64,000 nucleotides of DNA. Source: Nannocystis sp. Its GTDB lineage: Bacteria; Myxococcota_A; Polyangia; Nannocystales; Nannocystaceae. How positions within the stretch are numbered: the first letter of the stretch is position 1; the number at the start of each line of letters is the position of its first letter. Shown here piece after piece: positions 4,746 to 42,088 of this stretch. The stretch covers positions 1,058,522 through 1,122,521 of the forward strand of contig JADJRG010000022.1 of assembly GCA_016712315.1 (NCBI GenBank). Direction: 5' to 3'. A model generated the notes under the pieces. The model did no database searches. It saw only the letters and a list, made by a program, of their open reading frames with translations, and had not been told where the DNA came from. The translations under genes and the position numbers were made by a program.

Positions 4746-4807
4746 CAGAACGGCGTCTTTGTTCTGTCTGGTTGGTTTCGCTGCTCGGGTCGGCGGTCTA
4801 CCTCGAC

Positions 4808-6190: not shown

Positions 6191-6453
6191 TCGTCGGCGC
6201 ACGAGCGCGCGGGCGCTTATCACAGGGCACCCGCGCGTGAAGCTCGATCTCATGAGATCTGACACTTCATCACTCCTGAGCAATCGGCCTTGTCCGGAAG
6301 CAAGTCTTCTTGAGCTTGTCGTCGCGACTCGCCCCGAATATGTTCCGATCCAGGCGCCGATGTGGCGTCGATTCCCCGGGGACAGCGAGGCCTGCGCCGA
6401 GATCGGGGCCTGCGATTTATCGCTGGCCTCGGGGGTCAGCACGTGACCTCGCC

Positions 6454-8302: not shown

Positions 8303-8844
8303 TCAAGTCCTCGTATCCTCGCGTCGTCGCGGCGCCGCAGATGCCCCTCAGCGAGGTCATGGCGCGCTCGTCCGCGCAGATGAGCGTCCCTCGGGCGACG
8401 GGCGGGCTGTGCGCGGCGCAGCCGCTGCAGCCTCATGCATTCGAGATCGGCGACGCCAACGTCGGCCTTCGCCTCGACCCCGGCTGTTTCACCCTGCTAG
8501 GGCTCCTCGACGCCACTGTCGTGAGCATTCGCGTCTCACCTCAGCTCGACTACGTCGACGCGTACGCTGGCGCTGCGTTGCTCGAGCGCTGCGCCGCCCT
8601 GCTCGACGCCGCGACCTGGGAGCGTGACGGCTTGTTCTCCGCGGAACAAGCGCGCGTCACAGCCACCATCACCGGAGAGGCCCTCGCCGGGACCTGGCAC
8701 GCCCGTACCTGGACAACGCAGCTCCGGCTTCGACGCGTCCACACAGCCGCGGGCTCACCTGCTCTGGCGCTCGGAAAGCATCACGATCTCTTTCTCGTGA
8801 CCCTGTCCGTGAGCGGCGCTCACTCGGGCTGCCGAGCGCCGTAA
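8299..8844 (+). CDS. Candidate cognate immunity protein, translationally coupled to the PAAR effector
   Basis: The ATG at 8299 overlaps the effector TGA (ATGA), 181 aa, no recognisable domain. The assignment rests purely on the effector-immunity gene-pair architecture. Confidence 0.45.
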   Translation: MIKSSYPRVVAAPQMPLSEVMARSSAQMSVPRATGGLCAAQPLQPHAFEIGDANVGLRLDPGCFTLLGLLDATVVSIRVSPQLDYVDAYAGAALLERCAALLDAATWERDGLFSAEQARVTATITGEALAGTWHARTWTTQLRLRRVHTAAGSPALALGKHHDLFLVTLSVSGAHSGCRAP

Positions 8845-8863
8845 ACCCCGTATGCAGTCGCGC

Positions 8864-10345: not shown

Positions 10346-10438
10346 CACAACCCGATAACACGAAGCTGCGCCGACCGCACTCGCGTCGCCGCGCCGCTCC
10401 GGCGCGCCCCGAGCAGATCCGCGCCGAGCCAGCCGCCT

Positions 10439-12244: not shown

Positions 12245-12256
12245 CAGCGAGGAGCC

Positions 12257-13273
12257 CTACGCGCGGAGCGTCCGCCGCGCCCCCGGCTCGCCGAGCAGCA
12301 CGTCCGCGAGCGCCTCGGAGAGGGGAAAATTCGGCGAATTGTACTGTAGCCAGAAGCACTCGCCGGCCGGGTTCGCCTCGAGGAACACGTGGCGCCCGCT
12401 CGGCTCGACGATCATGTCGATCGCGCTGTACTGCATCTCGATCCGCTCCATGTAGCGCTCGATCGCCCGCTCGATCTCCGCCGGCAAGGTATAGCCGATC
12501 CACGACTGTAGCAGCGTCACCCCGCGCTCACGCCAGTCGATCTCCGCGCCACTGGTCCGCTGCGAGTCGACCGCCGCCGTGAAGATCCGCCCGCCGATCA
12601 CCGTGATCCGCAGCTCCAGCGCCTTCTCCACCTTCTCTTGAAACACCATCGGCGAGTAGCGCAGGCCGTCCAGCTTGCCCAGGTGCTCGCGCGACAGCGC
12701 CGTCGTGAAGACCACCTGCTCGACCCCCTGCTCGTCGATGATCGGGAACGCCGACAGCATCTTCGCCACCACCCCGTGCGGGCACGACTCGATGAACGCG
12801 CGCGCCTCCGCCGGATCGTTCGTCATCAGCGTCCGCGGGGTCGCCATCCCCAGCTCCCGCGCGAGCCGCAATTGAAACGGCTTATGCCCGCGCGCGCGCA
12901 CCCGCTCTGGCGGGTCGAGCACGAACCCCGGCGCCGCCGCCATCAGCCCGAAGAGCAGCGCCTTCGACTCGGTGACGCAGCCGTGGCGGAGCTGCTTGTC
13001 CATCGACATCGGCAGCCGCTCGGCGATCCGCGCGCGGCGGTACCAGATCGCGTCCTCCGGGCCCACCCGCAGCTCCTCCGCGCCGCAGCGAAATCGCAGC
13101 GCCTCGCCGTCGTCGTCGAGCGCCAGCGACGCGTGCGCCTCCATCGGGAAGCGATCCGTATCAAAGCGCATGACCTCGGCCCCGCGCCGCTCCAGCAGCC
13201 CGCGCAGCTCCTTGAGCATCCCGGTGATGTCCTCCGAGTGCGTCACCATCACGACCTTCTTCTTCGTCTTCAT
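12257..13273 (-). CDS. ATP-grasp ligase, microviridin MdnB/MdnC-like (graspetide macrocyclase)
   Basis: 338 aa, MKTKKKVVMVTHSEDITG…, of the same family as the adjacent ORF. The start overlaps the upstream stop (ATGA at 13270-13273). Belongs to a precursor–grasp–grasp–ABC operon on the minus strand. Confidence 0.8.
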   Translation of the reverse strand: MKTKKKVVMVTHSEDITGMLKELRGLLERRGAEVMRFDTDRFPMEAHASLALDDDGEALRFRCGAEELRVGPEDAIWYRRARIAERLPMSMDKQLRHGCVTESKALLFGLMAAAPGFVLDPPERVRARGHKPFQLRLARELGMATPRTLMTNDPAEARAFIESCPHGVVAKMLSAFPIIDEQGVEQVVFTTALSREHLGKLDGLRYSPMVFQEKVEKALELRITVIGGRIFTAAVDSQRTSGAEIDWRERGVTLLQSWIGYTLPAEIERAIERYMERIEMQYSAIDMIVEPSGRHVFLEANPAGECFWLQYNSPNFPLSEALADVLLGEPGARRTLRA

Positions 13274-14253
13274 CGCTCGCTCCTCTCACGCAGCTTCGCT
13301 CGCGCCAGCCCGAGCAGGGCCTGCGCGATGGCCTCACCGATCGGCAGGCCGAGGTCTCGCTCCAACATCCCCCACTCGCCGTGGGGGTTGACTTCAAGGA
13401 ACACGTAGTCGCCGCTCGGCGTGACGATCATGTCGATCGCCCCCTGTCGCAGCCCGAGCTGGCGCATCAACGCCGCGAGGCGCTCGTGCACCGCCGTCGG
13501 CAGCGCGTGCGCCTCCCAGCTCGCCGTCGACTCGTGGCGCCAGTCGACGCCGCATCGGGCCCCGTCGAGGCCGCCGACCAGCGCGCGGCCGTCCACCCAG
13601 GCGATCCTCAGCTCCATGGCCTTTGGGACATATCGCTGGAACATCATCGGGCAGTGGCGCAACCCGCCGAGCGCCTCTAGATCTGCGGGCCCGATCATCC
13701 GGGTCGGCAAGCCGCCGCCGCCCGCCATCGAGTAGCCGAGCGACGTCTGCAGCTTCGCCACCACCTGCCCGTCGTGCGCGCCCCAGAAGCGCCGCGCCGC
13801 CGCCGGATCGGCGGTGATCAGCGTCGGCGGGATCGCCAGCCCCAGCCCCTGCGCCAGCCGGAGCTGACGCGCCTTGTTCTCGGCGCACCGATTCGCGTCG
13901 ATCCCGTCGATCCACGGCGCGTCGTCGAGCAGGTCCAGCAGCCCGCGCAGCGCCGTCATCGACTCGCGCAGCGCCGCCTCGCGGTGAGGCGCGGCGAGGC
14001 CCGCGTCTAGGCGCGGCGGCCACAGCCGCCACAGCCACACCGCGTCGACCGTCAGCGCCTCCCCGTCGAGCAGCAGCCGCCCGCCCGCCGCAGGGTCGAG
14101 CTCGCCGCTCAGCGCGAGCGCGAGCGGGAAATCGTCCGTATCGAGCCGCAGCGGCCGCGCGCCGGCCCGCAAAAGGGCGCCCGCGACCCTCTCGGTGCAG
14201 AATGGCTCCTGGCTGTGCGTGAGCAGCAGGACGCAGGGTTGTTCGCGCATCAT
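13270..14253 (-). CDS. ATP-grasp ligase, microviridin MdnC/MdnB-like (graspetide macrocyclase)
   Basis: 327 aa, MMREQPCVLLLTHSQEPF…, paralogous to 12257..13273. Lies immediately downstream (36-nt gap) of the precursor peptide gene. Confidence 0.8.
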   Translation of the reverse strand: MMREQPCVLLLTHSQEPFCTERVAGALLRAGARPLRLDTDDFPLALALSGELDPAAGGRLLLDGEALTVDAVWLWRLWPPRLDAGLAAPHREAALRESMTALRGLLDLLDDAPWIDGIDANRCAENKARQLRLAQGLGLAIPPTLITADPAAARRFWGAHDGQVVAKLQTSLGYSMAGGGGLPTRMIGPADLEALGGLRHCPMMFQRYVPKAMELRIAWVDGRALVGGLDGARCGVDWRHESTASWEAHALPTAVHERLAALMRQLGLRQGAIDMIVTPSGDYVFLEVNPHGEWGMLERDLGLPIGEAIAQALLGLARAKLRERSER

Positions 14254-14289
14254 GTCACCTCAAGAGAGATCGGGGGCGCCCGGCTCACC

Positions 14290-14493
14290 TTACCCGTCGC
14301 TGTCTTTGAACCAGGTCGTCGACTCGTCGTCGTCGCTCGGGTACTTCTTCGTGCACGGCGAGTCGAGGCAGTGGTACGTGGGCGCACCGCCGCCGTTGGT
14401 GCTCTGCGCCGGGTCGCTCTGCGACGTCAGGAGGTGCGCGAAGAAGGGCAGGTCAGCCCCTTCGCTCTGTGGATCCATGATTTTCTTCGACAT
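14290..14493 (-). CDS. Graspetide (microviridin-class) precursor peptide, 67 aa: leader with PFFAHLL recognition motif, core TKKYPSDDDE
   Basis: MSKKIMDPQSEGADLPFFAHLLTSQSDPAQSTNGGGAPTYHCLDSPCTKKYPSDDDESTTWFKDSDG. The leader motif matches the conserved microviridin PFFARFL. The core matches T-x-K-Y-P-S-D-x-(D/E)-(D/E), with the residues that form the T1-D7 and S6-D9 esters and the K3-E10 amide. There is an AGGA ribosome-binding site 7 nt upstream of the ATG. It is the C-terminal third of ORF 14290..14721. Confidence 0.75.
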   Translation of the reverse strand: MSKKIMDPQSEGADLPFFAHLLTSQSDPAQSTNGGGAPTYHCLDSPCTKKYPSDDDESTTWFKDSDG

Positions 14494-14628
14494 TGTTCGT
14501 CCTTCTCTCTTACTTCCCCACGTGGAGGGCACAATCGCCCGCCACAACTTGACGGAGCGCCCCACGCGTAACCAACAGGCCACGCGCGTAGGAGCGCCCC
14601 GACACCCTTCCAAAAGAGTGAAGAGCGT

Positions 14629-14655
14629 CGATCCGCGCGTCGCCGGCGCGGATCG
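14629..14655 (-). promoter_or_regulatory. Perfect 10-bp GC-rich inverted repeat (CGATCCGCGC-N7-GCGCGGATCG) between the 14796..15119 gene and the precursor gene; possible terminator, attenuator or operator
   Basis: Read directly from sequence. On the minus strand it is followed by a moderately U-rich stretch (ACGCUCUUCACUCUUUUGG). Confidence 0.25.
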
Positions 14656-14795
14656 GGGCCCATGACTCGCCCGCCCCTCGTGCCCGCACCATACGCCCAA
14701 GCTGTCGCTCCCCGACCCCACCTGGATCTAACAGCGCACATACGCGCGGCGACGGCCCCTACCGCGCGCCCGGCGATTGAGCCGCCGCCGCGCCC

Positions 14796-15119
14796 TCAGC
14801 CCTCTTGCTCGCCGATCATCTCCTCGCCGCTGAGGATGCTGCCCCAGTTGTTGGCGTCGTTGAAGGTGAGGCTGAGCGGCTTCTCGTAGCGCAGCGTCCC
14901 GATCACCTCGCCGAAGCGCGCCTCGTGGAAGCGCAGGTACAGCGCGCCGTTCGCGATCTTCTGGCTCGGCGGCGCCGTGAACCCGTCGCGATAGAAGTAG
15001 AGCGTGCCGCGGTGCGTCCTGCCCTCGAAGCAGTTGATGACCGCGGTCAGGCCGTTCGTGGTGTCGAGGGTGTTGTGAAACACCGAGTAGCGGTCGATCG
15101 TGTAGTTGGTGGTAGCCAT
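14796..15119 (-). CDS. Hypothetical small protein (107 aa) with N/Y/T/F-rich composition atypical for the locus
   Basis: ORF MATTNYTIDRYSVFHNTLDTTNGLTAVINCFEGRTHRGTLYFYRDGF… has no out-of-frame-type low complexity. Immediately upstream of the graspetide operon on the same strand. Confidence 0.5.
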   Translation of the reverse strand: MATTNYTIDRYSVFHNTLDTTNGLTAVINCFEGRTHRGTLYFYRDGFTAPPSQKIANGALYLRFHEARFGEVIGTLRYEKPLSLTFNDANNWGSILSGEEMIGEQEG

Positions 15120-15255
15120 CGCCGCGATCCTGGCGCAGACCGCAGAGGGCCGTCAAACCGGCGGCCTCATACCGCTCAAGGGCGCAAAAAAGAGCGGACC
15201 GCTGGGGCCCGCTCTCGTGTTTGTTCTTGTTGCAACTTTGAGCGGCGAGCGCCGC

Positions 15256-16545
15256 TCAGCGCATCGTCGGCTCATCGCGGCGCCGCAGGAACGCTGGGAT
15301 CTCGCTCGGATCCGCCGCCGCCTCGCTGCGCGCCCACCGATCGGCCGCTGGCGCCTCACGCGTCGGCCGCGCCGCCGCCGCCTCGCGTGCATACGCCCCC
15401 GAGCTCTGCGACCCGCCGAGCAGCGCCGCCGCCTGCGCCCCGCGCACCGCGCTGGCCGCGGACGTCGCCCGCGCCGACGGACCACCAGGCACCTGCACCT
15501 GGATCACCCCGCCGCTCGCGCTCTGGCGGCGGCGACCTTGGTGGCTGCGGATCACCTGCTCCAGCTCCTCTTCGGCTGGCGCGTGGCGATCGAAGCCGGT
15601 CGCGATCACCGTCAGCCGCAGCATATCGCCCATATTCGGGTCGATCACCGCGCCGAAGATGATGTTGCAGTCCTCGTGCGCCGCCTCTTGGATCAGCGAA
15701 GCCGCCTCCTCCACCTCGTGCAGGCGCAGGTCGGGGCCGGCCGTAATGTTGATCAGGATCCCTTGAGCCCCGTGGATCGTCACGTCCTCGAGCAGCGGCG
15801 ACGAGATCGCCTGCTGCGCCGCGGCCAGCGCCCGCCCCTCGTCGGACGCGATCCCCATGCCCATCAACGCCCGCCCTTGGCCCGACATGATCGTGCGCAC
15901 GTCCGCGAAGTCGACGTTGATGATCCCCGGCACTGTGATCAGGTCGGACACCCCTTGCGTCGCGTGCTGCAGCACCTCGTCCGCGAGGCGGAACGAGTCG
16001 AGCAAGCTCGTGTTCGCCGAGGTCACTGACAGCAGCCGATCGTTCGGGATCGTGATCAGCGTGTCGACCGCCTTCTCCAGCTTCTCGATCCCCATCTCCG
16101 CGAAGCGCATCCGCCTCCGGCCTTCGAAGCGGAACGGCTTCGTCACCACGCCCACCGTCAGCGCCCCGAGCTCGCGGGCCACCTGCGCGATGATCGGCGC
16201 CGCCCCCGTGCCCGTGCCGCCGCCCATACCACCTGTCACAAAGACCATGTCTGCGCCTTGCAGCGCCTCCGCGATCGCGTCGATGCTCTCGAGCGCCGCC
16301 TCGCGCCCCTTCTCCGGGTTCGCGCCGGCGCCCAGGCCGCGCGTGATCTCCTTGCCGAGCTGGATCGTGATCCCGGCCAAGCTCTTCTCGAGCGCCTGCA
16401 CATCGGTGTTGGCGACGATGAACTCGACCCCCTCCACCTTGTTATTGATCATCGTATTGACGGCGTTGCCGCCCGCGCCTCCCACGCCGATCACCTTGAT
16501 CTTGGCGGCTGGGGGCAGAGATTCGTCGAGGTCGAAGTACGCCAT
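15256..16545 (-). CDS. ftsZ: Cell division GTPase FtsZ
   Basis: MAYFDLDE…[15 protein letters not shown]…[13 protein letters not shown]…, the full tubulin/FtsZ signature with a C-terminal variable tail. An AT-richer promoter-like region lies upstream (16546..16810). Confidence 0.95.
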
Positions 16546-16814
16546 AGCTGGGTTCCCTTGCTTGCTTGCTCGCTGCTCAGGCGAGGAGTTGCTCCACGCG
16601 TGCCCTTATCTGAGGCGATCTCGCGAGGCAAAAAACTTGGGATTTTAAGAGATCCGCCCGGCCAAAACGCCTACCTTATCCTACACTGTAGGCAACGCCA
16701 AATTCCCTCACACAACCCCTAGAACCCGCCTCTACAGGCCAATTCCTGCCCATCCTCGCAGGAGCACGCCTCCGCGCCAACGCTCTGGCGCCGCGAGCCG
16801 TTGATCTGCCTCGG

Positions 16815-17585
16815 TCATCTCGGCCACAGCATCGAGACCCCCCCGATCGCCACCATCACCAGCACCGCCCAGCGCACCAGCCCTGCGCCTGCACGGATCT
16901 GCCAGCGCGCCCCCAGCCAACCGCCCAGCGCCGTCCCCACCGCGAGCGCCAGCCCCTCCTTCCACGCGATCTGCCCCGCCAACCCGAAGATCGGCAGCGT
17001 CAGCGCGCTATAGACCAGCACCGCGCGCACCTTGATCGCGTTCGCCACCACCGCCGGATAGCCCAGCCCCGGCACCAGCAGCGCCAGCAGCGGGAAGCCC
17101 ACCCCTGCCTGCAAGAAGCCCCCGTACACCCCGATCACCCCCGCCACCAGATCCGCCCGCCACGACATCGGCGTCGGCGCCGGAGGAGGCCGCAAGAAAC
17201 GACCTGGCCGTAAGGCCAGGATCACAGCCCACACCACCAGCACGCCGCCGATCAGCGGCCCAAACATCGCGTCCGCCACCCTCGTCGCCAGCCAAGCCCC
17301 GCCGATCGCCCCGACTGTCATCGGCAGCGCCACCCGCAGCGTCGCCGTGTACTCCCCGATCCCATCGCGATGGAACGCCCACGAGGAGCCGATCCCTTGC
17401 AGCAGCACCCCCACCCGGCTCGTCCCGTTCGCCACCGTCGGAGGCAGCCCCAGCCCGATCAGCAGCGGCAAAATTAAGAAACTCCCCCCGCCCGCCAGCG
17501 TATTCACCACCCCCGCGAAGATCCCCGCCGCCACCAGCAGCCCGATCCCCACCCAAGGGCTCAGGCCCCACATCTCCAAGCTCAC
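16815..17585 (-). CDS. TauE/SafE family (DUF81) sulfite/anion exporter, integral membrane protein
   Basis: 256 aa, 7-8 hydrophobic helices. Conserved TSRVGVLLQG and GAGGG-type motifs typical of TauE/SafE. Start is GTG 17585 or ATG 17573. Confidence 0.8.
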   Translation of the reverse strand: MSLEMWGLSPWVGIGLLVAAGIFAGVVNTLAGGGSFLILPLLIGLGLPPTVANGTSRVGVLLQGIGSSWAFHRDGIGEYTATLRVALPMTVGAIGGAWLATRVADAMFGPLIGGVLVVWAVILALRPGRFLRPPPAPTPMSWRADLVAGVIGVYGGFLQAGVGFPLLALLVPGLGYPAVVANAIKVRAVLVYSALTLPIFGLAGQIAWKEGLALAVGTALGGWLGARWQIRAGAGLVRWAVLVMVAIGGVSMLWPR

Positions 17586-17598
17586 CCGCCCTCCCCCC

Positions 17599-20500
17599 TC
17601 ACTCCGCCGAGGCCTCCGCCACCTCGACCGCCCGCCGAGCCTGCGCCGGCCGCATCACCGCGCCGGCCGCCATCATCGACACCAATTCCCCGTCCACCTC
17701 CGTCAGCAGCCGTTCCCGACAGAACCAGTGATCAGGCACAGCCGCCCCCAGCAGCCCCTCGACCACCTCACGTGGCCGCGCGCCCCCGTCGCCGCTCCCC
17801 AAGTTCAGCCGCAGCATCAGCGCCCCCCGCTCGCGGTCCACCCGAGCCGACAAGATCCGCCCACGCGCGTCCACCACCCGCGGCGCCTCGTTCTTACTCC
17901 GCCCTGGTTTCCCGCCTGAGCGTCGCACCACCGGCAGCTCGGCCGCCGCCAAGCTCGCCATCAGCTTCTGCTCCGCCGCTGCCACCCCCTCCGGGTCCAG
18001 CGTCACCGCGTACTCTGCCGCCGCGATCATCTCCCCGATCCGCTTCTCGCCTGGCCCCACCAGCCGCAGCCCCACGATCTCCAGCCCGGGGGGCGCCACC
18101 GCGCGAAGTCGCGCCTCCAGCGCTGCCCCGATCTCCGCCCGCTGCGCCGCGCTCCAGCCCCCTGTCATATCCGCCAGGGCGTCCGCCACGATCAGATCGA
18201 TCTCCACAACCTCCTCGAGCGCGGCTGTCCCGAGGGGCAGGGCGGGACCGAAGCTCATCCGCGGCACTGGGTTGAAGCCTCGCGTGAACGCCACCTCCAG
18301 CCCTGCGCGCCGCAGCATGCGCGGGATCACCCGCAGCAGGTCCAGGTGGCCCATAAACGCCATCGCCCCTTGTTTCGTAAAAAACACCCGAGCCCGGCTA
18401 TACGGCGCCTCCGCCGCCTCCTTGAACGCCGAATCCGCCGCCAAATTGGAGCGCCCGGTCAGCCCGGTCAGCCCGCTCGGCCGCCCCTCCTTCACCCGGC
18501 TCACCAGCCGCTCCGCCGGGATGAACTCCTCGCCCAGCAGCGGCGGATCCGCCGTCCCATCCTCTAGATCCTCCGCGTCATCCGCCGCCAGCGCCCACGC
18601 CTCGGCCGCCGCCGCCTCGCGCTCCTGGCGCGCCTCTCGGAGCCGATTCAGCTCACGCAGCGCGACCAGCCGCTCGCCGCGCATCTCGCTCATATCGCAG
18701 GCGATCCCGCAGTCGTAGCAGACCAGCCGTCGCTGCTCCGCCGCCGCGTCCGCCTCGTTCGTGTGGTGCACCTTCGCCCCGAACGGCTTCCCGCACGGCG
18801 GCGAGCTGCGCCCCTTCAGCGCCTTACGGTACTCGCTCGCCAAGAAGTCCGGATCCAGCCCCATGTCCAGGTGGTCCCACGGCAGCCGCGCGTCCACCGG
18901 GATCGTCCTCGTATACCGCTCCGGCTCGATCCCTGCCGCTTGCAGCGCCGCCAGCCAGCGGTCGAACGAGAACACCTCTTTCCACCCGTCGAAGCGCGCA
19001 CCTGCCCGATAGGCCAGCTCAAGCGCCTCCCCCATCCGCCGGTCGCCGCGCGCGAACAGGCACTCCAGCCAGCTCTCGCGCGGCGCGTGCGTCTTCAGGC
19101 TCAGCTTGTAGCGGCGCGCCAGCCCCTTGAGCAGATCGATCTTCCCATAAAGATCCTCCACCGACTCCATCGCCGCCCATTGGAACGGCGTATGAGGCTT
19201 CGGCACGTGCTGCGACACGGACACCGTCACCGTCGGCATCCTCGCCACCCGCATCTCCCGGGCCACCTCGCGCACTCGGTTCCCCGTCTCCGCGATCCCG
19301 ACCACGTCCTCCTCGGTCTCGGTCGGCAGCCCCATGATGAAGTACATCTTGATCCGGTCGTAGCCGCGCTCGAAGATCCGCCGCGCCGACGCCAGGATGT
19401 CCTCGTCGCTGACGTTCTTGTTGATCACGTCGCGCATCCGCTGCGTGCCTGCTTCTGGCGCGAAGGTCAGGCCGCTGATGCCCACCGTCTTGATCGCGTC
19501 GAGCAGCTCGTTGTTCAGCCCGTACGCGCGCAGGCTCGCCACCCCCAGCTTCACCTTCCGCTTGTACAGCTCCGGCACCAGCTCCTTGATCAGCGGATCG
19601 ATACAAGACACGTCGGCCGTGCTCAGCGCTGTCAGGCTCGTCTCGGAGAACCCGCCCTTGTCCACCCCTTCCAGCACCGCCTTCACCACCGCCGCCGGCG
19701 ATCGCTCCCGCACCGGCCGATAGATGATCCCCGCCTGGCAGAAGCGGCACCCCTCCGTGCACCCGCGCGTGATCTCCACCGCCGCGCGATCGAAGATCGC
19801 CTCCGCGTACGGCACCGGGAATTCTGTCGGGAACGGGAACTGATCCAGATCGCGCACCCACACCCGCTCCACCCGCTCAGGCGCCCCAGCGGCCACCCCA
19901 GCGGCGCTGCGCCCGATCACCACCTCGAGCTCCGATCGCGGGTCCACCGCGACCTCATAGAATTCTGGCACATAGATCCCTGGCAGCTTGACCGCCGCCG
20001 CCAGCACCGCCGCGCGCGACGCCCCTGCCCGCCGCAGCCCGCCGATCGTCCGCAGCAGCGCCGGCAGCACCTCCTCCGCCTCGCCCACCAGAAAAAGATC
20101 CACGAACGAGCTCAGCGGCTCTGGGTGTGTCGCCGTCGGCCCGCCCGCGATCACGATCGGATCGTGATCACCGCGGTCACGCGAGCGGATCGGGATCCCC
20201 CCCAGCTCCAGGTTCAGCAGCACGTTCGAGTAGCTCAGCTCGTACTGGAGGCTCACCCCCACCACGTCGAAGTCGCGCAGCGGCCGCTGGCTCTCCATGC
20301 TGATCAGCGGCAGGCCTCGCGCCCGCAGCTCCGCCTCCATATCGCTCCACGGGCTGAACGCCCGCTCGCACGCCAGATCGGGGGCCTTATTGATCAGCGA
20401 GTACAAGATCCGCGTGCCCAAGTGGCTCATCCCGATCTCGTAGATGTCGGGGAACGCCAGCACGAAGCGGCACGTGAGCGGCTCCGACCACGGCTTACAG

Positions 20501-20634
20501 ATCTGCTGCTCCTCACCGCCGAGGTAGCGGCCGGGCTTGCTCACGCGCGCGAGAAAGCCCGCGTACGGGTGTGAAGAAGCCGCGCCGAGGGCCGCCTTTG
20601 CGATCCGGTCTTGGACTGAAGTCTCGTCGAACAT
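17599..20634 (-). CDS. Large fused radical SAM protein: B12-binding-like N-terminal region, radical SAM core (CTEGCRFCQAG), and a C-terminal radical-SAM-linked (DUF2344-like) domain
   Basis: ORF 17599..20661; the likely start is ATG 20634 (MFDETSVQDRIAKAAL…KPGRYLGGEE, resembling the N-terminus of TIGR03960-type proteins). CxxxCxxC cluster present; 1011 aa. Confidence 0.8.
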   Translation of the reverse strand: MFDETSVQDRIAKAALGAASSHPYAGFLARVSKPGRYLGGEEQQICKPWSEPLTCRFVLAFPDIYEIGMSHLGTRILYSLINKAPDLACERAFSPWSDMEAELRARGLPLISMESQRPLRDFDVVGVSLQYELSYSNVLLNLELGGIPIRSRDRGDHDPIVIAGGPTATHPEPLSSFVDLFLVGEAEEVLPALLRTIGGLRRAGASRAAVLAAAVKLPGIYVPEFYEVAVDPRSELEVVIGRSAAGVAAGAPERVERVWVRDLDQFPFPTEFPVPYAEAIFDRAAVEITRGCTEGCRFCQAGIIYRPVRERSPAAVVKAVLEGVDKGGFSETSLTALSTADVSCIDPLIKELVPELYKRKVKLGVASLRAYGLNNELLDAIKTVGISGLTFAPEAGTQRMRDVINKNVSDEDILASARRIFERGYDRIKMYFIMGLPTETEEDVVGIAETGNRVREVAREMRVARMPTVTVSVSQHVPKPHTPFQWAAMESVEDLYGKIDLLKGLARRYKLSLKTHAPRESWLECLFARGDRRMGEALELAYRAGARFDGWKEVFSFDRWLAALQAAGIEPERYTRTIPVDARLPWDHLDMGLDPDFLASEYRKALKGRSSPPCGKPFGAKVHHTNEADAAAEQRRLVCYDCGIACDMSEMRGERLVALRELNRLREARQEREAAAAEAWALAADDAEDLEDGTADPPLLGEEFIPAERLVSRVKEGRPSGLTGLTGRSNLAADSAFKEAAEAPYSRARVFFTKQGAMAFMGHLDLLRVIPRMLRRAGLEVAFTRGFNPVPRMSFGPALPLGTAALEEVVEIDLIVADALADMTGGWSAAQRAEIGAALEARLRAVAPPGLEIVGLRLVGPGEKRIGEMIAAAEYAVTLDPEGVAAAEQKLMASLAAAELPVVRRSGGKPGRSKNEAPRVVDARGRILSARVDRERGALMLRLNLGSGDGGARPREVVEGLLGAAVPDHWFCRERLLTEVDGELVSMMAAGAVMRPAQARRAVEVAEASAE

Positions 20635-20774
20635 GACCTTCGGGCAGGTGTGCCACAACAACCATCAAAGGTCACCCGTAGCCGCCCGCGCCTCGCGCTC
20701 CTCCAAGCGAGGACGCTCGTCGCGCCTCACCGCCGCCCTTGCCGCCCGCGCTCTGGGCGTTACCATGCCCGCTC

Positions 20775-35496: not shown

Positions 35497-36663
35497 GTGT
35501 TTTTTGCCCCGGCCCCCCCTCTCATGGCATGCCCGCTCGGTCCCTCGGCCATGCCCACCACCACCGCCCAGCGAAACGCGCGCCGCGCGAACCCGCGCCG
35601 CGCCCCGGTGATCGCGGCCCAACGCGCCCCTCAGCCCGCGTTACGACTCAGCGCCCTCTTTCGCCCTCGCGCGAGCGCCAGGCCTCGCCCGAACGCGAGG
35701 GCCCGCGGCGCCAACCGCCGCCGCCGCGACGCCGACACCAGCGCAGCTCCAACCCAGCGCCTCACCCCCGCCGTCGCCCCCCGCCTCGCGCGCCGTGCCC
35801 GCGACCTCAGCTCCTTGCTCGGCCGCTTCGGCGTCGCCCTCTGCCTCGCCTACGGCCTCCTCGTCGGCGCTCAAGCCTTCGCCGCCTACGTCACCACCGC
35901 CCCGCGCTTCGAGGCCGCCCAACTCCTCGTCAAGCCTACGCCCCACCTCAGCGCCGAGCGGATCGCCGCCCTCATGGCGATCGAACCCGGCACCAACATC
36001 CTCGCCCTCGATCTCCGCGAGCTCGAGCGCCGGATCGCCGCCGACGGCTGGGTCAGCGCCGTCGAGCTCCGCCGCGAGCTGCCCGACACCCTCCGGATCG
36101 CCGTCACCGAGCACCAGCCCGCCGCCGTACTCCTCCTCGCCGGCCGCTTCTTCCTCGTCGATCGCGCCGGTCACCCCTTCAAAATTCTCGGCCCTGGCGA
36201 GCGCGGCGACCTGCCTGTGATCACCGGCGCCTCCGCGGCCGCGCTCACCAGCGGCGACAGCGGCCCGATCCAGCGCGCCCTCGCTGCCAGCGACGCCTGG
36301 TCCGCCGCCGCGCGCCCGCCCCTCGGCGAGATCCACCTCGGCGAAGCCGGCGAGCTCACCCTCTACCCCGCCACCGGCCAGAGCGAGCTCCGCCTCGGCC
36401 GCGGCCCGATCGAAGGCAAGCTCGCCCGCTACGACGCCTTACGCGCCGCCCTCGGCGATCGCGCCGATCGCCTCGCCGTCGTCCACCTCGACGCCACCTC
36501 TGCGCCTGGCGCAGCCGAGCGGATCGTCGCCAGCTTCCTCACCCCAGAAGATGAGGCCGCAGTCTTAGGGCGCGGCGAGGCGGCCGTCGCCGCCCGCGAG
36601 GCCCCCACCACCAAGCCGGGCAAGCGCCCGAAGAAAAAAGCGCGGATCCCCCGCTACGAGTGA
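35497..36663 (+). CDS. ftsQ: Cell division protein FtsQ/DivIB (POTRA domain) with Arg/Pro-rich N-terminal extension
   Basis: TM segment LGRFGVALCLAYGLLVGAQAFAAYV, then POTRA (…LLVKPTPHLSAERIAALMAIEPGTNILALDLRELERRIAADGWVSAVELRRELPDTLRIAVTEHQP…). Start uncertain: GTG 35497 or ATG 35524/35551. It precedes ftsA by 12 nt. Confidence 0.8.
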   Translation: MFFAPAPPLMACPLGPSAMPTTTAQRNARRANPRRAPVIAAQRAPQPALRLSALFRPRASARPRPNARARGANRRRRDADTSAAPTQRLTPAVAPRLARRARDLSSLLGRFGVALCLAYGLLVGAQAFAAYVTTAPRFEAAQLLVKPTPHLSAERIAALMAIEPGTNILALDLRELERRIAADGWVSAVELRRELPDTLRIAVTEHQPAAVLLLAGRFFLVDRAGHPFKILGPGERGDLPVITGASAAALTSGDSGPIQRALAASDAWSAAARPPLGEIHLGEAGELTLYPATGQSELRLGRGPIEGKLARYDALRAALGDRADRLAVVHLDATSAPGAAERIVASFLTPEDEAAVLGRGEAAVAAREAPTTKPGKRPKKKARIPRYE

Positions 36664-36675
36664 ACGGAGCAGCGT

Positions 36676-37941
36676 ATGGCTGAGGTCGGAGAAGTCATCG
36701 TCGGTCTCGATATCGGCACCACCAAGGTCGCCGCGATCATCGCTGAAGTCACCGAGAGTGGCCTCGAGATCATCGGCGTCGGCACCAGCCCCTCCGAGGG
36801 GCTGCGTCAAGGCGTGGTCGTCAACATCGAAGCCACCACGGGCAGCATCGCCGCTGCGATCCAAGAGGCCGAGCAGATGGCCGCCGTCGACGTCCAGTCC
36901 GTCTACGTCGGCATCGCCGGCGGCCACGTCCGCGGCTTTCGCAGCCTCGGTCAGGTCAGCATGCGCAACCGCGAGGTCACCGAAGCGGACGTCGCCCGCG
37001 TGCTCGAGCAAGCCAAGGCGGTCAACATCCCCCTCGATCGGCAGATCCTCCACACCTTACCGCTCGAGTACATCATCGACGGCCAGGGCCAGATCCGCGA
37101 CCCGATCGGCATGAGCGGCGTCCGCATGGAGGTGCGCGCGCACGTCATCACCGCCGCCACCACCAGCGTCCAGAACATCATCAAGTGCTGCAACCGCGCC
37201 GGCCTCGACGTCATCGAGGTCGTCTTGGAGCCCCTCGCCAGCGCCCTCGCCGTCCTCCACGACGACGAGCGCGACCTCGGCGTCGCCGTCATTGACATCG
37301 GCGGCGGCACCACCGACCTCGCGATCTACAGCGAAGGCACCAACGTCTTCTCCTCCGTCATTGTCATGGGAGGGCACCGCATCACCCAAGACATCGCCCA
37401 CGGCCTGCACACCAGCGTCGCCGAGGCCGAGCAGATCAAGCGCAAACACGGCTGCGCGCTCGTCTCCATGGTCCAAGGCGACGAGCGGATCGAAGTCCCC
37501 GGCGTCGGTCCTCGTCCGCCGCGCGAATTCCAGCGCCGCTTCCTCGCCGAGATCATCGAGCCCCGCGTCGAAGAGATCCTCCTCCTCGCCCACGAAGAGC
37601 TCGTCCAGAGCGGCATGACCGAGCTCGCCGGCAGCGGCATCGTGCTCACTGGCGGCGCCGCCACCCTCGACGGCATGGCCGAGATCACCGAAGACATCTT
37701 TCAGATGCCCGTACGGATCGGCGTCCCTGGCCACGGGATCGGCGGCCGCCGCGGCCTCCGTCTCACCGAAGGAGGCTTCGCCGGCGTCATCCAGAACCCC
37801 AAGTTCGCCACCGGCGTCGGCCTCGCCCTCTACGGCGCCACCCACGAGCCCCTCTTAGAGACCCTCGCCGAAGCCCACGCCCGCAGCGACCGCCCCGGCA
37901 TCGGCCGCCGCCTCGCCACCTGGGTCCGCGAGATCTTCTAG
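36676..37941 (+). CDS. ftsA: Cell division protein FtsA
   Basis: MAEVGEVIVGLDIGTTKVAAII…DIGGGTTDLAIY…, the actin-like ATPase fold typical of FtsA, 421 aa. Confidence 0.93.
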   Translation: MAEVGEVIVGLDIGTTKVAAIIAEVTESGLEIIGVGTSPSEGLRQGVVVNIEATTGSIAAAIQEAEQMAAVDVQSVYVGIAGGHVRGFRSLGQVSMRNREVTEADVARVLEQAKAVNIPLDRQILHTLPLEYIIDGQGQIRDPIGMSGVRMEVRAHVITAATTSVQNIIKCCNRAGLDVIEVVLEPLASALAVLHDDERDLGVAVIDIGGGTTDLAIYSEGTNVFSSVIVMGGHRITQDIAHGLHTSVAEAEQIKRKHGCALVSMVQGDERIEVPGVGPRPPREFQRRFLAEIIEPRVEEILLLAHEELVQSGMTELAGSGIVLTGGAATLDGMAEITEDIFQMPVRIGVPGHGIGGRRGLRLTEGGFAGVIQNPKFATGVGLALYGATHEPLLETLAEAHARSDRPGIGRRLATWVREIF

Positions 37942-37975
37942 TTACTTCCAGTTCGTAACTTTCGATCAGGCCCTC

Positions 37976-39343
37976 ATGACCGCCGACGAGCAAGACCCAC
38001 TGCACCCACACGATAGGAGCGCAGAGGGCCCCTATCGTCGGCTCAAGCGCCTCACCATCGACGATCTCTTCGGCCCCAGCACCCCCCAGATCGACATCCT
38101 CTTAAGGCTCGACCAGCGCGTCACTGTGCTGCACGGCCGCAACGGCTCCGGCAAGACGATCACCCTCAACCTGCTCGCCGCCCTCTGCCGCGGCCACTTC
38201 GAGCAACTCGATCGTTACCCCTTCAGCCGCCTCGAGCTCGAGACCACCGACGGCGCCACCCTCACGATCTCCAAAGCGCTCGGGCTCATCCGTCGGCGCG
38301 CTGGAGTCGGGGAGGAATCCATCGCCACCACTCACCGCTACAAGCTCTCGCTGCCCGGCCGACCGCCCGAAGAAGGAGAGATCCCTCGCGTCCCCCCTGA
38401 GGATCTCGCCAACATCGCCAAGAAGCGCGGATTTCAGCGCAATCATCGCCATCAGTGGGACCACCTCACCGGTGATCGCGAGCGCGACGACGTCGATCTA
38501 ATCCAGGAGATCCGCGAGATCTACGGCGAGGAGGCTCTCCCGTCGCTCATCCCAGAAGACTCGCAACTCGCGTCCTTTCTCCGCACCTTGGCCCCGATCA
38601 AGTTCATCCGCGCCGATCGGCTCTACGAGCGCAACCGGCTCGGCGATCCTGAGCTGACCATCGAGCGCCTCGGCCGCGGGCTCCGACGGGTCATCGTCGC
38701 CGCGGACCGGCAGTACCGCGCGATCTCGTCGCAACTCGACTCCAGCCTCGCCAAGCGCCTCTTCGCCGCCCACAAAGATCTACCCACCCTCGACCAGCTC
38801 CGTAAGCGCTCCAGGCACCTCCACGAGCGCACGGAGCACCTCATCGAGATCGGCCTGCTACGCGAGCAGCTCGACCCCATCGACGAAGCCGCCCTCACCG
38901 AGGACCAAAAAAAGACCTTCTTTATCATCCTCAAGGATCGTGAAGAGAAGCTCGCGCCCCTCTTCCCGGTCGCGGACAAGGCTCAACGCCTGCTCGAGAG
39001 CCTCAACCGCAAGCTCGCGCCCAAGGTCGTACGCCTCGACGTCGACAGCGGCTACCAGGTCCTCAGCGCCAGCGGCGCCCCCCTCAAGCTGCGAGACCTC
39101 TCCTCCGGCGAGCAGCACGAGCTCGTGCTCTTCCACGAGCTGCTCTTCGACGTCCAGCCAGGCAGCCTGATCCTCATCGACGAGCCCGAGCTCTCGTTAC
39201 ACGTCACCTGGCAGGTCGACCTGCTCGCCGACCTGATCGCGATCGCCCGGCTCGCCGACCTCGACATCATGCTCGCCACCCACTCGCCCTACATCGTCGG
39301 AGATCATACCGATCTCATGGTCCGCCTAGGTGAGCCTGTATGA
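37976..39343 (+). CDS. ABC-type/AAA_15-21 family ATPase, PARIS AriA-like defence ATPase
   Basis: Walker A LHGRNGSGKT, signature/Q region LSSGEQHELVLFHEL, Walker B LILIDEPELSLH, H-loop LATHSP. 455 aa. The stop overlaps the start of the next gene (ATGA at 39340). Confidence 0.6.
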   Translation: MTADEQDPLHPHDRSAEGPYRRLKRLTIDDLFGPSTPQIDILLRLDQRVTVLHGRNGSGKTITLNLLAALCRGHFEQLDRYPFSRLELETTDGATLTISKALGLIRRRAGVGEESIATTHRYKLSLPGRPPEEGEIPRVPPEDLANIAKKRGFQRNHRHQWDHLTGDRERDDVDLIQEIREIYGEEALPSLIPEDSQLASFLRTLAPIKFIRADRLYERNRLGDPELTIERLGRGLRRVIVAADRQYRAISSQLDSSLAKRLFAAHKDLPTLDQLRKRSRHLHERTEHLIEIGLLREQLDPIDEAALTEDQKKTFFIILKDREEKLAPLFPVADKAQRLLESLNRKLAPKVVRLDVDSGYQVLSASGAPLKLRDLSSGEQHELVLFHELLFDVQPGSLILIDEPELSLHVTWQVDLLADLIAIARLADLDIMLATHSPYIVGDHTDLMVRLGEPV

Positions 39344-40239
39344 ACCACCCCGAGTGGGGTGTACCTCAGCCGCCCCCGCGCACCGAGTCGAAATTCTTCA
39401 ACGCCGCCCGTCGCACCGTCTCCTTGCTCGTCGAGGCCGGCATCGACGCCCGCTTCTGGCGGATCCACTGCGTCCGCGACTGTCACGTCCGCCACCACGA
39501 CCAAGGCGGCCGCGACGCCGTCTTACGCGCCCTCGACCAAGCCCGCGGCGACCCCGAGGCCGTCCTGCTCGCCGTGCTCGACGCCGACCTCGACCGCCTC
39601 GAAGGCCGCCTCGAAGACCGCGATGACGTCATCTGGACCGACGCCCACGACCTCGAGACCACCCTCTTCACCACCCCAGCCCTCGAGAAACTCGCCAACT
39701 TTCACCTCGACCCCGACAAGCTCCAGGCCGCCGAGCAGCGCTGGAGAGAGACCTTCCGAGTCCGACTCTTCCGCCACGCCGCCGGCTTCGGCCGCCTCCG
39801 CTGGTTAAAGAACCGGAGTCACGACGAGCTCGATCTCCTCGTCTTTAAAAAGATCTCAAAGCGCCAGCTCTCCTACTTCGACCGCTACAGCGAGTGCGCC
39901 GCCGCCGACTGGACCCCAGATCTCAAGATCGCGATCCGCAAGATCATCGACTACAGCAGCGCTCACTCCCTCCTCGAGCGCGACCTCGCCGCCGAGTGTG
40001 AGGCCCTCCCTGCGGCCGATCTCCACCAGCTCTGCAACGGTCACGATCTCCTCGGTCTGCTCGCGGCTGGCCTCGCCGCCCTGGGCTCCGGCAACAAGCC
40101 CAAGGCCGACGCGCTCGCCGAAGCCCTCGCGACCGCCTGCGAGCGCGCCTGGCTGCTCACCACCGCCATGTGGCGCGCCATCGAGTCATGGGAGCGCGCC
40201 CACCCTGGCTACCAGGTTCTCCGCCAGGATCCCGACTAG
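39340..40239 (+). CDS. DUF4435/TOPRIM-like protein, PARIS AriB-like putative nuclease partner
   Basis: 299 aa. It has an N-terminal LLVEAGIDARFW (TOPRIM-type conserved Glu) and AVLDADLD (DxD metal site), as in OLD-family/DUF4435 TOPRIM modules. It is translationally coupled to the ATPase. Confidence 0.5.
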   Translation: MNHPEWGVPQPPPRTESKFFNAARRTVSLLVEAGIDARFWRIHCVRDCHVRHHDQGGRDAVLRALDQARGDPEAVLLAVLDADLDRLEGRLEDRDDVIWTDAHDLETTLFTTPALEKLANFHLDPDKLQAAEQRWRETFRVRLFRHAAGFGRLRWLKNRSHDELDLLVFKKISKRQLSYFDRYSECAAADWTPDLKIAIRKIIDYSSAHSLLERDLAAECEALPAADLHQLCNGHDLLGLLAAGLAALGSGNKPKADALAEALATACERAWLLTTAMWRAIESWERAHPGYQVLRQDPD

Positions 40240-40325
40240 CCTCGCCACCCCGTGGCCACTGCGTTAGGCCGGCGCCAATTCTTCTTGAGTACCGAACCCG
40301 AGGCCGGCGCCGCAGACTCGTGCGC

Positions 40326-40745
40326 ATGTCTGAGACCGTCCACATCCCCAGCGCCATCAACAACGTCACGATCGAGTTCGCCGCCACCGTCGACCGTGAG
40401 GTCGACGAGCGGCTGGTCGAGGGGCTGCGCCACTGCATCAAGACGGACATCGCCCCGGGCTACACCTTGCACACCATCTACATCTCCTCTGCCAGCGACT
40501 CGCACGTCGCGCCGAGCCGGCACGCGCAGTCCAAGGCCGTCGACATCTCGCGGATCAACGGCAAGCGCATGTCGGAGCACTACGGCGCGGGGGGAGAGGT
40601 CACCGAGATCACCCAAGCGATCCAGAGCAGCTTTGAGACCTTCGGTCACCGCCGCGAGAATTTCGGCCCCAGCATCAAGCACAAGCTCGGCGAGTCGTAC
40701 AGCGTCGGCGGCCACGCGGATCACATCCACCTCTCCGTCGACTGA
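40326..40745 (+). CDS. Small zinc peptidase of the LAS/M15 superfamily (VanX/endolysin-like D,D- or L,D-peptidase), 139 aa
   Basis: ATG 40326 in ORF 40170..40745; the competing frame 40252..40833 is Arg/Pro/Ser low-complexity and was rejected. Motifs SRHAQSKAVD (H-x6-D) and HADHIH (H-x-H) match the LAS zinc-binding arrangement. Confidence 0.45.
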   Translation: MSETVHIPSAINNVTIEFAATVDREVDERLVEGLRHCIKTDIAPGYTLHTIYISSASDSHVAPSRHAQSKAVDISRINGKRMSEHYGAGGEVTEITQAIQSSFETFGHRRENFGPSIKHKLGESYSVGGHADHIHLSVD

Positions 40746-40846: not shown

Positions 40847-42088
40847 ATGTCGTTAGCCACCCGAGAGCCCCGCGTCCTCTTCGTCATCCCTTTTTTTAGC
40901 GCCAACATGCTGCGCTGCGTCGACGCCTTGCTCGCGCTCGACGGCGTCCGCCTCGGCGTCATCTCGCACGAACCAGCCGAGCGCCTGCCGCCCGCCTATC
41001 GCGGCAAGATCGCTGGCCACTATCAGATCGCCGACTGCCTCGACGTCGACCAGCTCAGCGCCGCCGCTGCTGCCTTTAAGAAGGAGTGGGGCGGCGTCGA
41101 TCGCCTCCTTGGTTTCCTCGAGCAGATGCAGCTCCCCATCGCCGTCGTCCGCGATCGCCTCGCGATCCCTGGCATGGGCGCCGCGATCGCCCGCAACTTC
41201 CGCGAGAAGAATCAAATGAAGCGCGTCCTCGCGGACGCCGGCTTGCCCGTCGCGCGCCAGCGCCTGCTCACCAGCGGAGACGAGGCCCGTCGCTTCGTCG
41301 CCGAGGTCGGCTACCCGATCATCCTCAAGCCGCCCGCGGGCCTCGGCTCGCGCGGCACCGTCCGCGTCGGCAGCGACGACGAGCTCAGCGCCGCCCTCGA
41401 GTCGCACTTCGTCACCCCGTCCAACCCCGTCCAAGCCGAGGAGTTCGTCACCGGCGACGAGCACACCTTCGAGACCGTCAGCATCGCCGGCCAGGCGGTC
41501 TGGAGCTCCTCCAGCTACTACCTACCGCGCCCGCTCGAGGTGCTCGAGAACCCCTGGATCCAGTACTGCGTGCTCCTCCCCCGCGAGCAGCTCCAGCCCC
41601 ACGCCGCCGCCTTCCGCCCCCTCAACGCCGCCGCGCTCACCGCCCTCGGCATGGTCACGGGCCTCTCCCACATGGAGTGGTTCCTCCGCCGAGACGGCTC
41701 CATGGTCATCTCCGAGGTCGGCGCGCGCCCGCCTGGTGTTCACCTCATGCCGATGATGGGCCTCTGCCACGACGTCGACATGTGGGCCAAGTGGGCGCGT
41801 CTTATGGTGAACGGCGAGTTCAGCATGCCTGAGCGGCGCTGGTCCTGCGGCGCCGCCTTCCTCCGCGGTCAAGGCCGCGGCGGCACCGTCCGCGCCGTCG
41901 ACGGGGTCGCCCGCGCCAACGAAGCCGCCGGTCACCTCGTCGTTGAGAGCAAGCTCCCCAAGGTCGGCCAGATGAAGGCCGACGGCTATGAGGGCGAGGG
42001 ATACGTGATCGTCAAGGCGGCCACCACCCGCGAGGTCGTCGACGCCCTCCGCGCGATCGTCACCAACATCCAAGTCCAGCTCGGCTGA
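40847..42088 (+). CDS. ATP-grasp domain protein (carboxylate-amine / L-amino-acid ligase-like)
   Basis: 413 aa. The central region (…KNQMKRVLADAGLPVARQRLLTSGDEARRFVAEVGYPIILKPPAGLGSRGTVRV…) is a typical ATP-grasp B/C-domain. It is unrelated to the graspetide ligases elsewhere in the window. Confidence 0.65.
   Translation: MSLATREPRVLFVIPFFSANMLRCVDALLALDGVRLGVISHEPAERLPPAYRGKIAGHYQIADCLDVDQLSAAAAAFKKEWGGVDRLLGFLEQMQLPIAVVRDRLAIPGMGAAIARNFREKNQMKRVLADAGLPVARQRLLTSGDEARRFVAEVGYPIILKPPAGLGSRGTVRVGSDDELSAALESHFVTPSNPVQAEEFVTGDEHTFETVSIAGQAVWSSSSYYLPRPLEVLENPWIQYCVLLPREQLQPHAAAFRPLNAAALTALGMVTGLSHMEWFLRRDGSMVISEVGARPPGVHLMPMMGLCHDVDMWAKWARLMVNGEFSMPERRWSCGAAFLRGQGRGGTVRAVDGVARANEAAGHLVVESKLPKVGQMKADGYEGEGYVIVKAATTREVVDALRAIVTNIQVQLG

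Follow-up and report, generated by a model that had tools for sequence, protein, structure and literature searches.

The closest described relatives of the locus analysed here belong to PARIS (E. coli B185, P4-like satellites), characterised by Rousset et al. 2022, Burman et al. 2024 and Deep et al. 2024 (PDB 8UX9, 8V45-8V49). In E. coli, a hexamer of the ATPase AriA, with phenylalanines at its CC interface, sequesters up to three monomers of the nuclease AriB, and the system is activated when the phage anti-restriction and DNA-mimic protein Ocr binds AriA; released AriB dimerises (dimer residues F137 and E285) and cleaves tRNA Lys-UUU, Thr-UGU and Asn-GUU, leading to translation arrest. AriA needs the Walker A lysine K39 and the Walker B glutamate E393, mutation of K39 blocks Ocr binding (PMC11464382), and R116/R119 and R168/R172 mark pore loops implicated in trigger sensing. 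The two-metal acidic set of AriB consists of E26, D30, D88, E90 and E122, the substitution E26A abolishes defence, and K60/K64 of the effector are named in connection with tRNA cleavage. Reviews group with PARIS the lactococcal AbiL (AbiLi/AbiLii) and Campylobacter RloAB systems, which likewise consist of two genes for a Rad50-like ATPase and a TOPRIM/OLD nuclease (PMC13064643).

We analysed a 64,000-nucleotide stretch of Nannocystis DNA (the window) and found two ORFs exactly where an earlier note on this DNA had placed them, on the plus strand and overlapping by 4 nt:

37976..39343, plus strand: ariA-like gene, 455 aa, ABC/SMC-Rad50-type ATPase, presumed sensor and antitoxin subunit
39340..40239, plus strand: ariB-like gene, 299 aa, DUF4435/TOPRIM nuclease, presumed effector and toxin
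39340..39343, plus strand: ATGA overlap of stop and start codons (translational coupling), seen in the sequence itself as gtATGAac

Each protein carries all the motifs that the note lists for it. Because both proteins lie above Pfam gathering thresholds, an identical AriA-like protein has already been deposited from a Nannocystis sp. MAG, and homologues number in the thousands (with clusters drawn at 50% identity, the protein-2 profile finds 4093 representatives at E ≤ 1e-3), the ORFs are, as judged from sequence, real genes and not chance ORFs of high-GC DNA. In the homologous pairs L005 and L086 the AriA match likewise stops at the start of AriB.

We consider it highly probable that this Nannocystis species carries the pair on its chromosome as an abortive-infection system of the PARIS (AriA/AriB) type. 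This was also the reading of the earlier note, and it was upheld by a published detection rule, PADLOC, catalytic motifs and fold similarity. The rule of Rousset et al. 2022 calls for adjacent genes with AAA_15 at ≥32 or AAA_21 at ≥27 bits plus DUF4435 at ≥27 bits (PMC9122126); here the scores were 44.0, 64.4 and 33.8 bits, respectively, the last exceeding its threshold by 7 bits. PADLOC AriA models matched protein 1, and AriB was the sole match of protein 2, as it was for 7 of 8 sampled distant relatives of protein 2 (the eighth had no match). Gene order is the same as in E. coli, ATPase then nuclease, the proteins measure 455 and 299 aa compared to 464 and about 305 aa, and both systems combine AAA_15/AAA_21 with DUF4435. 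E. coli AriA was the best sequence-profile match, and AriA and AriB were the best fold matches of the pair.

The ATPase has Walker A, Walker B, signature and H-loop motifs in common with PARIS, on the following segments:

38135..38158, plus strand: Walker A/P-loop GRNGSGKT (K60), read directly from the sequence
39098..39184, plus strand: from the ABC signature LSSGEQ (375-380) to Walker B LILIDE (D402/E403), these residues being invariant among the aligned homologues

K60 is the counterpart of E. coli AriA K39 and was invariant, together with G54, N56, G57 and G59, in an alignment of 36 homologues. Walker B reads LILIDEPELSLH, and its residues D402/E403, the signature residues S376-Q380 and H436, which lies in the LATHSP motif, were likewise invariant across the 36 AriA homologues; the segment from signature to Walker B aligned to residues 357-439 of E. 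coli AriA, with Walker B E393 included. The ATPase site is therefore predicted to be intact, in a Rad50/SMC-type ABC ATPase with a short coiled-coil/helical insertion whose nearest solved structure is AriA.

The TOPRIM character that the earlier note had given to protein 2 was borne out by the predicted structure, in which strands defined by DSSP on the model precede the acidic motifs. DUF4435, a TOPRIM fold and the E...D / DxD / E acidic set of PARIS were all found, with the key residues in four short segments:

39433..39447, plus strand: TOPRIM E32 and D36 (LLVEAGID), directly after strand beta1 (residues 27-31)
39580..39588, plus strand: TOPRIM DxD D81-A-D83 (DADLD), directly after strand 76-80 of the model, both aspartates invariant
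39640..39657, plus strand: second acidic cluster D101-A-H103-D104-L-E106, with D101, H103, D104, L105 and E106 invariant
40039..40047, plus strand: G234-H235-D236 motif in the C-terminal helical domain, invariant in 34 homologues

E32 and D36, invariant in 34 AriB homologues, have the same spacing as E26/D30 of E. coli AriB, D81/D83 are the counterpart of D88/E90, and the D101-E106 cluster is likely the counterpart of E122 in the two-metal site. Altogether K60, D402/E403 and H436 of the ATPase and E32, D36, D81, D83 and E106 of the nuclease match residues essential in E. coli.

Overall similarity was low. Identity to the E. coli AriA and AriB proteins was only 12-20%, the Foldseek global TM-score against AriB was only 0.43-0.49, and a profile of the AriB clade did not reach E. 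coli AriB by sequence. Searches of PDB chains with protein 2, singly and as a 34-sequence profile, did not find AriB; the connection had to be made through HMM libraries and a comparison of folds. The pair is a divergent yet recognisable PARIS copy, an ordinary addition to a known family and a matter of routine annotation, not discovery. It extends PARIS to a large-genome, high-GC myxobacterial genus, where the retention of fold and catalytic residues despite the divergence helps to define the truly conserved features of the family. Standard detection rules barely catch this clade, given the narrow DUF4435 margin and the several relatives that have no precomputed Pfam hit.

Assignment to another ATPase-nuclease family, namely Septu PtuAB, OLD/Gabija or AbiL/RloAB, with DNA nicking or degradation in place of tRNA cleavage, is unlikely. 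The best single PADLOC match of protein 1 was a PtuA model (7.8e-20), ahead of the AriA models by a narrow margin over the last 80 residues, and numerous models of the PtuA, PDC and ATPase-Toprim types matched as well; however, the PtuA similarity was confined to common ABC motifs. Septu and retron-associated PtuA-PtuB pairs carry an HNH nuclease, whereas the partner here matched DUF4435/AriB alone, with no HNH match, and AriA is clearly the nearer relative of protein 1. The TOPRIM fold is common to OLD and GajA nucleases, but the ATPase and TOPRIM parts lie on separate proteins here and are not fused as in OLD or in GajA with its UvrD-like GajB. AbiL differs in that protein 2 drew no match from the AbiL models of PADLOC, and the sequences of AbiLii and AriB are not significantly similar (PMC13064643). 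In favour of such an assignment, identity to E. coli AriB is just 12-16%, and substrate specificity is therefore not safely transferable.

The pair sits at a site that differs from those of E. coli PARIS, between ftsA and an ATP-grasp gene and away from any satellite, prophage or integrase context:

36676..37941, plus strand: ftsA, upstream flank (Pfam FtsA 155 bits, SHS2_FTSA 102 bits)
37942..37975, plus strand: ftsA-ariA spacer of 34 nt, too short for an obvious independent promoter
40847..42088, plus strand: ATP-grasp ligase gene, downstream flank (Pfam ATP-grasp), conserved in genomes that have no pair
15256-16545, minus strand: ftsZ in the window

The earlier note was right to place the pair after ftsA, which ends 34 nt ahead of the first ORF, and wrong to take this as the place where ftsZ would be expected, since ftsZ lies upstream of ftsQ in all Nannocystaceae examined; displacement of ftsZ by the insertion was rejected from 80 ftsA loci. 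Comparison with relatives that lack the pair upheld the insertion itself. Five genomes (L006-L010) with FtsA 87-89% and ATP-grasp protein 71-74% identical covered the site fully and had 620-700 bp of unrelated DNA between the two genes, indicating that the pair was gained in this lineage. At none of the 61 other Nannocystaceae loci recovered, these five included, did the pair follow ftsA; some of the loci extend just a few hundred bases past that gene. Adjacency of the ATPase and DUF4435 genes was kept in every homologous locus examined and the flanks were unrelated, as in an accessory module that moves horizontally; homologous pairs occupied four unrelated contexts, including one with many mobile-element genes, and the L005 pair had resolvase, IS21, rve integrase and DndB genes as neighbours.

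Around the Nannocystis pair itself, we found no mobile-element hallmark, flanking repeat or further defence gene. Searches for repeats, integrase genes and insertion scars around 37.7-41.0 kb gave just short chance-level matches; a 13-nt inverted repeat (37878/40773) was rejected as an element boundary because its left arm lies inside conserved ftsA. The nine neighbouring proteins had no PADLOC match, and the locus is therefore not a defence island. A 139-aa ORF (p139, 40326-40745) was rejected as a third component, having no family or PDB match and being absent beside other AriAB pairs. Scans of viral contigs with the AriB profile and of plasmids with tblastn returned no relatives. A sigma-70-type scan detected no promoter-like site in the 34-nt spacer, and scanning for promoters and terminators produced no convincing candidate; the one terminator-like hairpin, after ariB (40261-40275), is weak and within shuffle expectation.

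We also compared the locus with near-identical metagenome strains (L001-L004) and observed strong divergence in a single tract:

37938..39393, no strand: recombination tract, the sole stretch strongly diverged from L001-L004, comprising the last codon and stop of ftsA, all of ariA and ariB to about codon 18
38276..38575, plus strand: most divergent ariA segment, codons 101-200, including the low-confidence basic loop LIRRRAGVGEE

DNA identity to these strains was 49-93% inside the tract and 95-100% outside. AriA shared 70% amino acid identity compared to 97-100% in the flanks, FtsA being identical (100%), and dS was 0.47 in ariA compared to 0.03-0.12 in ftsA, ariB, p139 and the ATP-grasp gene. 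Upstream, the break coincides with the stop codon of ftsA (TAG vs. TAA), the spacer differs from that of L002, with a 10-nt indel, and 14 of the 36 nucleotide differences in ariB fall within its first 55 nt. Codons 101-200 had pN of 0.35-0.41 and pS of 0.53-0.60, compared to pN of 0.07-0.21 in the remainder of ariA. Model confidence (pLDDT) dips at AriA residues 101-120, and the profile alignment places the region approximately at R116/R119 of E. coli AriA; the counterpart position for R168/R172 is extrapolated past the aligned stretch. On the evidence of these alignments, the divergence results from exchange of the sensor allele by recombination and peaks in the segment roughly aligned with the trigger-sensing loops of E. 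coli AriA. Positive selection in situ was rejected as its only cause, since synonymous sites have diverged too, 4-15 times as much as in the flanking genes. The dN/dS of 0.16 in ariB and 0.41 in ariA shows both genes to be under purifying selection.

The most likely effect of the replacement is a change in the phage trigger that the system recognises. A tentative extension, which we regard as possible and somewhat short of probable, is that in one Nannocystis species the PARIS locus is a cassette fixed in the chromosome, with homologous recombination exchanging ariA alone and leaving ariB in place. Read-through of the cassette from the ftsQA operon, with expression tied to cell division, is less likely. 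If the two alleles recognise different triggers, they would represent natural sensor-only reprogramming of an abortive-infection system and a ready allele pair for mapping PARIS trigger specificity; with two natural ariA alleles sharing a single ariB, the question is easy to approach by experiment.

[quoted passage not shown] Least probable of all is domestication for a host function linked to cell division, with the pair possibly co-transcribed with ftsQA and acting like the archaeal OLD-family ATPase Cran1, for which a cell-cycle role is reported (PMC12796447). This would fit the tight spacing after ftsA with no promoter-like site detected, the same position in all strains of this species-level lineage and the lack of mobile-element genes nearby, but not the absence of the pair at the other Nannocystaceae loci, the unrelated contexts of homologous pairs, or the allele replacement and raised dN/dS of ariA, a pattern characteristic of immune sensors rather than of division proteins.

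For the PARIS reading, we infer complex formation, trigger, RNA target and anti-phage phenotype by analogy with E. coli. The ABC ATPase AriA would oligomerise and keep the TOPRIM nuclease AriB inactive until a phage-encoded protein bound AriA, when ATP binding and hydrolysis would release AriB; freed AriB would then dimerise and cut host tRNA, or possibly other RNA, stopping translation and aborting the infection. Both the trigger and the target of the Nannocystis pair may differ from those in E. coli. In this lineage, the two genes were inserted between ftsA and the ATP-grasp gene; homologous recombination later exchanged the sensor ariA for a divergent allele and left ariB in place. Compared to E. 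coli PARIS, the pair in this high-GC myxobacterial host also has the invariant residues W40, H103 and G234-H235-D236, which may be additional to those of the E. coli proteins.

The two open reading frames that an earlier note had described as a PARIS-like ATPase and DUF4435 pair placed directly after ftsA were both recovered exactly on the plus strand, with each quoted motif present, in a window with a G+C content of ~69%:

35497-36663: ftsQ (POTRA_1 and FtsQ_DivIB_C domains)
36676-37941: ftsA (FtsA and SHS2_FTSA domains), its 3' end 34 nt before ariA
37976-39343, plus strand: ariA-like ORF, protein 1, 455 aa
39340-40239, plus strand: ariB-like ORF, protein 2, 299 aa
40326-40745, plus strand: p139, an orphan 139-aa ORF between ariB and an ATP-grasp gene
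15256-16545, minus strand: ftsZ (Tubulin and FtsZ_C domains)

Stop and start codons of the pair overlap in the sequence gtATGAac, the ATGA through which the genes had been proposed to be coupled. A deposited protein from a Nannocystis sp. MAG is identical to protein 1, which places the window in Nannocystis. Protein 1 carries GRNGSGKT (K60), LSSGEQ (375-380), LILIDEPELSLH (D402/E403) and LATHSP (H436), and protein 2 carries LLVEAGID (E32, D36) and DADLD (D81, D83). GC3 of the two genes dropped only slightly, to 0.84-0.87 compared to 0.87-0.93 in neighbouring genes.

The gene pair is a standard, if divergent, PARIS system. PARIS is present in 5.2% of genomes and is detected as adjacent genes scoring at least 32 bits for AAA_15 or at least 27 bits for AAA_21, together with at least 27 bits for DUF4435 (Rousset et al. 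2022, PMC9122126). Protein 1 scored 64.4 bits for AAA_21 and 44.0 bits for AAA_15 and protein 2 scored 33.8 bits for DUF4435, such that all three domains suggested for checking exceeded their thresholds. PADLOC, also suggested, matched protein 2 to AriB alone (6.4e-14) and protein 1 to both AriA models (2.4e-19, 5.3e-19) and to PtuA models (best 7.8e-20), the latter confined to generic C-terminal ABC motifs. E. coli AriA was the top PDB sequence match of protein 1 (1.6e-14), and a 36-sequence profile clearly separated AriA (3.8e-27) from PtuA (2.3e-10), with the AriA alignment spanning both lobes, N-terminal (E. coli residues 6-158) and C-terminal (357-439). Septu (PtuAB) was ruled out because the partner of the ATPase is not an HNH nuclease, and OLD and Gabija because in them ATPase and TOPRIM domains share one polypeptide, with folds that are much more distant.

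Divergence was too great for E. coli AriB to be reached from protein 2 by sequence, with either a single query or a profile. The confident predicted structure of protein 2 (pLDDT 94.6) had two AriB chains as its only significant PDB matches in Foldseek (E 7e-5 and 2e-4, probability 1.0, TM 0.43-0.49). In the model, strand 27-31 is directly followed by E32 and strand 76-80 by D81xD83, a predicted arrangement that is the canonical TOPRIM layout, and the acidic residues match the metal ligands of E. coli AriB (E26, D30, D88, E90, E122; PMC11464382) in order and spacing. This layout and the AriB fold matches thus argue against the lack of a TOPRIM fold and agree with the identity first proposed. 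Across 34 homologues of protein 2, E32, D36, W40, G57, D81, D83, D101, H103, D104, L105, E106, L109, R154 and G234-H235-D236 were invariant. The AriB-like family is large: a profile search retrieved 4093 representatives of 50%-identity clusters at E<=1e-3, of which 823 remained at E<=1e-30; when 8 distant members were sampled, PADLOC assigned 7 to AriB only and 1 had no match.

Homologous pairs elsewhere retained the adjacency of ATPase then DUF4435, with the AriA match terminating at the AriB start in two loci (L005 and L086), and their genomic surroundings were unrelated to one another:

L005 (JGI Ga0558717_01464, 2245-16894; pair 52% and 57% identical): resolvase, IS21 IstB fragment, rve integrase, HTH regulators, DndB
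L087: DNA methylase and PLD-like gene
L086 and L088: miscellaneous metabolic genes

Because these pairs share no context, a consistent association with a non-defence operon was not seen. The surroundings of L005 are of a mobile-element and defence-island type, which is missing at the window locus, and no relatives were found in viral-contig and plasmid collections.

We mapped the window proteins onto 80 ftsA loci from reference genomes. In the five closest genomes without the pair (L006-L010; FtsA 87-89% and ATP-grasp protein 71-74% identical), ftsA and the ATP-grasp gene are separated by 620-700 bp with unrelated small ORFs, compared to 2.9 kb holding ariA, ariB and p139 in the window. AriA/AriB were absent downstream of ftsA from all recovered ftsA loci except those of the window's species (L001-L004), making the pair accessory. 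The insertion between ftsA and the ATP-grasp gene is real, but the argument for a rearrangement junction, that the pair occupies the place expected for ftsZ, did not hold. In every Nannocystaceae locus with ftsZ inside the examined stretch (Nannocystis, Enhygromyxa, Plesiocystis and MAGs), ftsZ preceded ftsQ on the same strand, 1-9 kb upstream where seen in others of the family (order ftsZ-ftsQ-ftsA), and in none of the Nannocystaceae loci examined did it follow ftsA; the order ftsQ-ftsA-ftsZ was confined to outgroups with ~50% identical FtsA. The missing ftsZ after ftsA therefore reflects an ancestral gene order shared across the family and does not indicate this insertion. In the window, ftsZ lies ~19 kb from ftsQA on the opposite strand, so the division cluster was reordered family-wide in Nannocystaceae, with a further inversion or insertion in the window's lineage.

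Around the pair we found neither flanking repeats nor integrase genes nor tRNA-type attachment signatures, and neighbouring genes had no defence-family matches. The slightly lower GC3, together with closest named homologues labelled Myxococcota or Deltaproteobacteria, agrees with an older acquisition from a different bacterium of high GC. The 3' flank of ftsA is a variable slot with different small ORFs in related genomes (e.g. L006 11266-11907; L008 11340-11774): L009 and L010 have a conserved minus-strand ORF of ~85 aa, L006 and L007 have related longer ORFs, and L008 has an unrelated 144-aa ORF.

The sole point beyond routine annotation is a clean replacement of the ariA allele alone between near-identical strains. 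In four metagenome contigs of the same species-level lineage (L001-L004) the pair occupies this position too, with protein identities to the window of 100% for FtsA and p139, 99% for ATP-grasp, 97% for FtsQ and AriB, and only 70% for AriA. DNA identity was 95-100% except in one tract at 49-93% (window 37938-39393, L002 8630-10055), which runs from the final codon and stop of ftsA (TAG versus TAA) across the spacer, ariA and the first ~18 ariB codons, to ~55 nt into ariB. As dS was high in ariA (0.47) compared to ftsA (0.077), ariB (0.118), p139 (0.03) and the ATP-grasp gene (0.087), the allele was imported by homologous recombination and did not merely evolve fast in place; ariA is under purifying selection (dN/dS = 0.41). 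We read this as an exchange of the sensor allele with the effector ariB retained. Divergence was maximal at codons 101-200 (pN 0.35-0.41), which include a low-confidence basic loop, LIRRRAGVGEE, present in the other allele in a shorter and less basic form. By profile alignment, an approximate mapping, these codons lie roughly opposite R116/R119 of E. coli AriA, while the counterpart of R168/R172 is extrapolated from the alignment offset. In E. coli, mutating the positively charged pore loops formed by these arginines affects the sensing of Ocr (PMC11464382), and the exchange may have altered trigger specificity. In L001, a 1-bp insertion at ~8775 disrupts ariA, annotated there as a 330-aa ORF together with a spurious antisense ORF, whereas the gene is intact in L002-L004; the break reflects either a misassembly or a strain whose antitoxin/sensor gene is disrupted.

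The best-supported mechanism would be a carry-over from E. coli PARIS, in which the hallmarks are an AriA hexamer that sequesters AriB, release of AriB by a trigger, its dimerisation and the cleavage of tRNA (PMC11464382, PMC10802264). For the present pair, the analysis established architecture, folds, catalytic residues, purifying selection and accessory status. By analogy in assembly, trigger, substrate and phenotype, AriA oligomers would keep AriB inactive until a phage protein binds AriA, and AriB, freed with ATP turnover, would dimerise and cut tRNA, stopping translation. The ftsA-ariA spacer is only 34 nt and has no promoter-like site in a scan that covers myxobacterial promoters poorly, which suggests putative expression by ftsQA read-through or from a promoter within ftsA.

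The orphan p139 had no Pfam, NCBIfam, PADLOC or PDB match and was not found alongside other AriAB pairs; it was confined to the species-level lineage of the window, with 100% identity to L001-L004. Its motifs SRHAQSKAVD and GGHADHIHLS are putative counterparts of the H-x-D / H-x-H zinc sites in LAS-type peptidases. Elsewhere in the window, 30702-33305 (minus strand) encodes an 867-aa vault-like bacterial protein that is conserved in sister contigs; it matched the shoulder domain of major vault protein at 96 bits, a Vault_3 repeat and, weakly, SPFH/Band 7. Between ftsZ and ftsQA, 17599-20661 (minus strand) encodes a 1020-aa protein in which Radical_SAM_N2, Radical_SAM and DUF2344 domains are fused.
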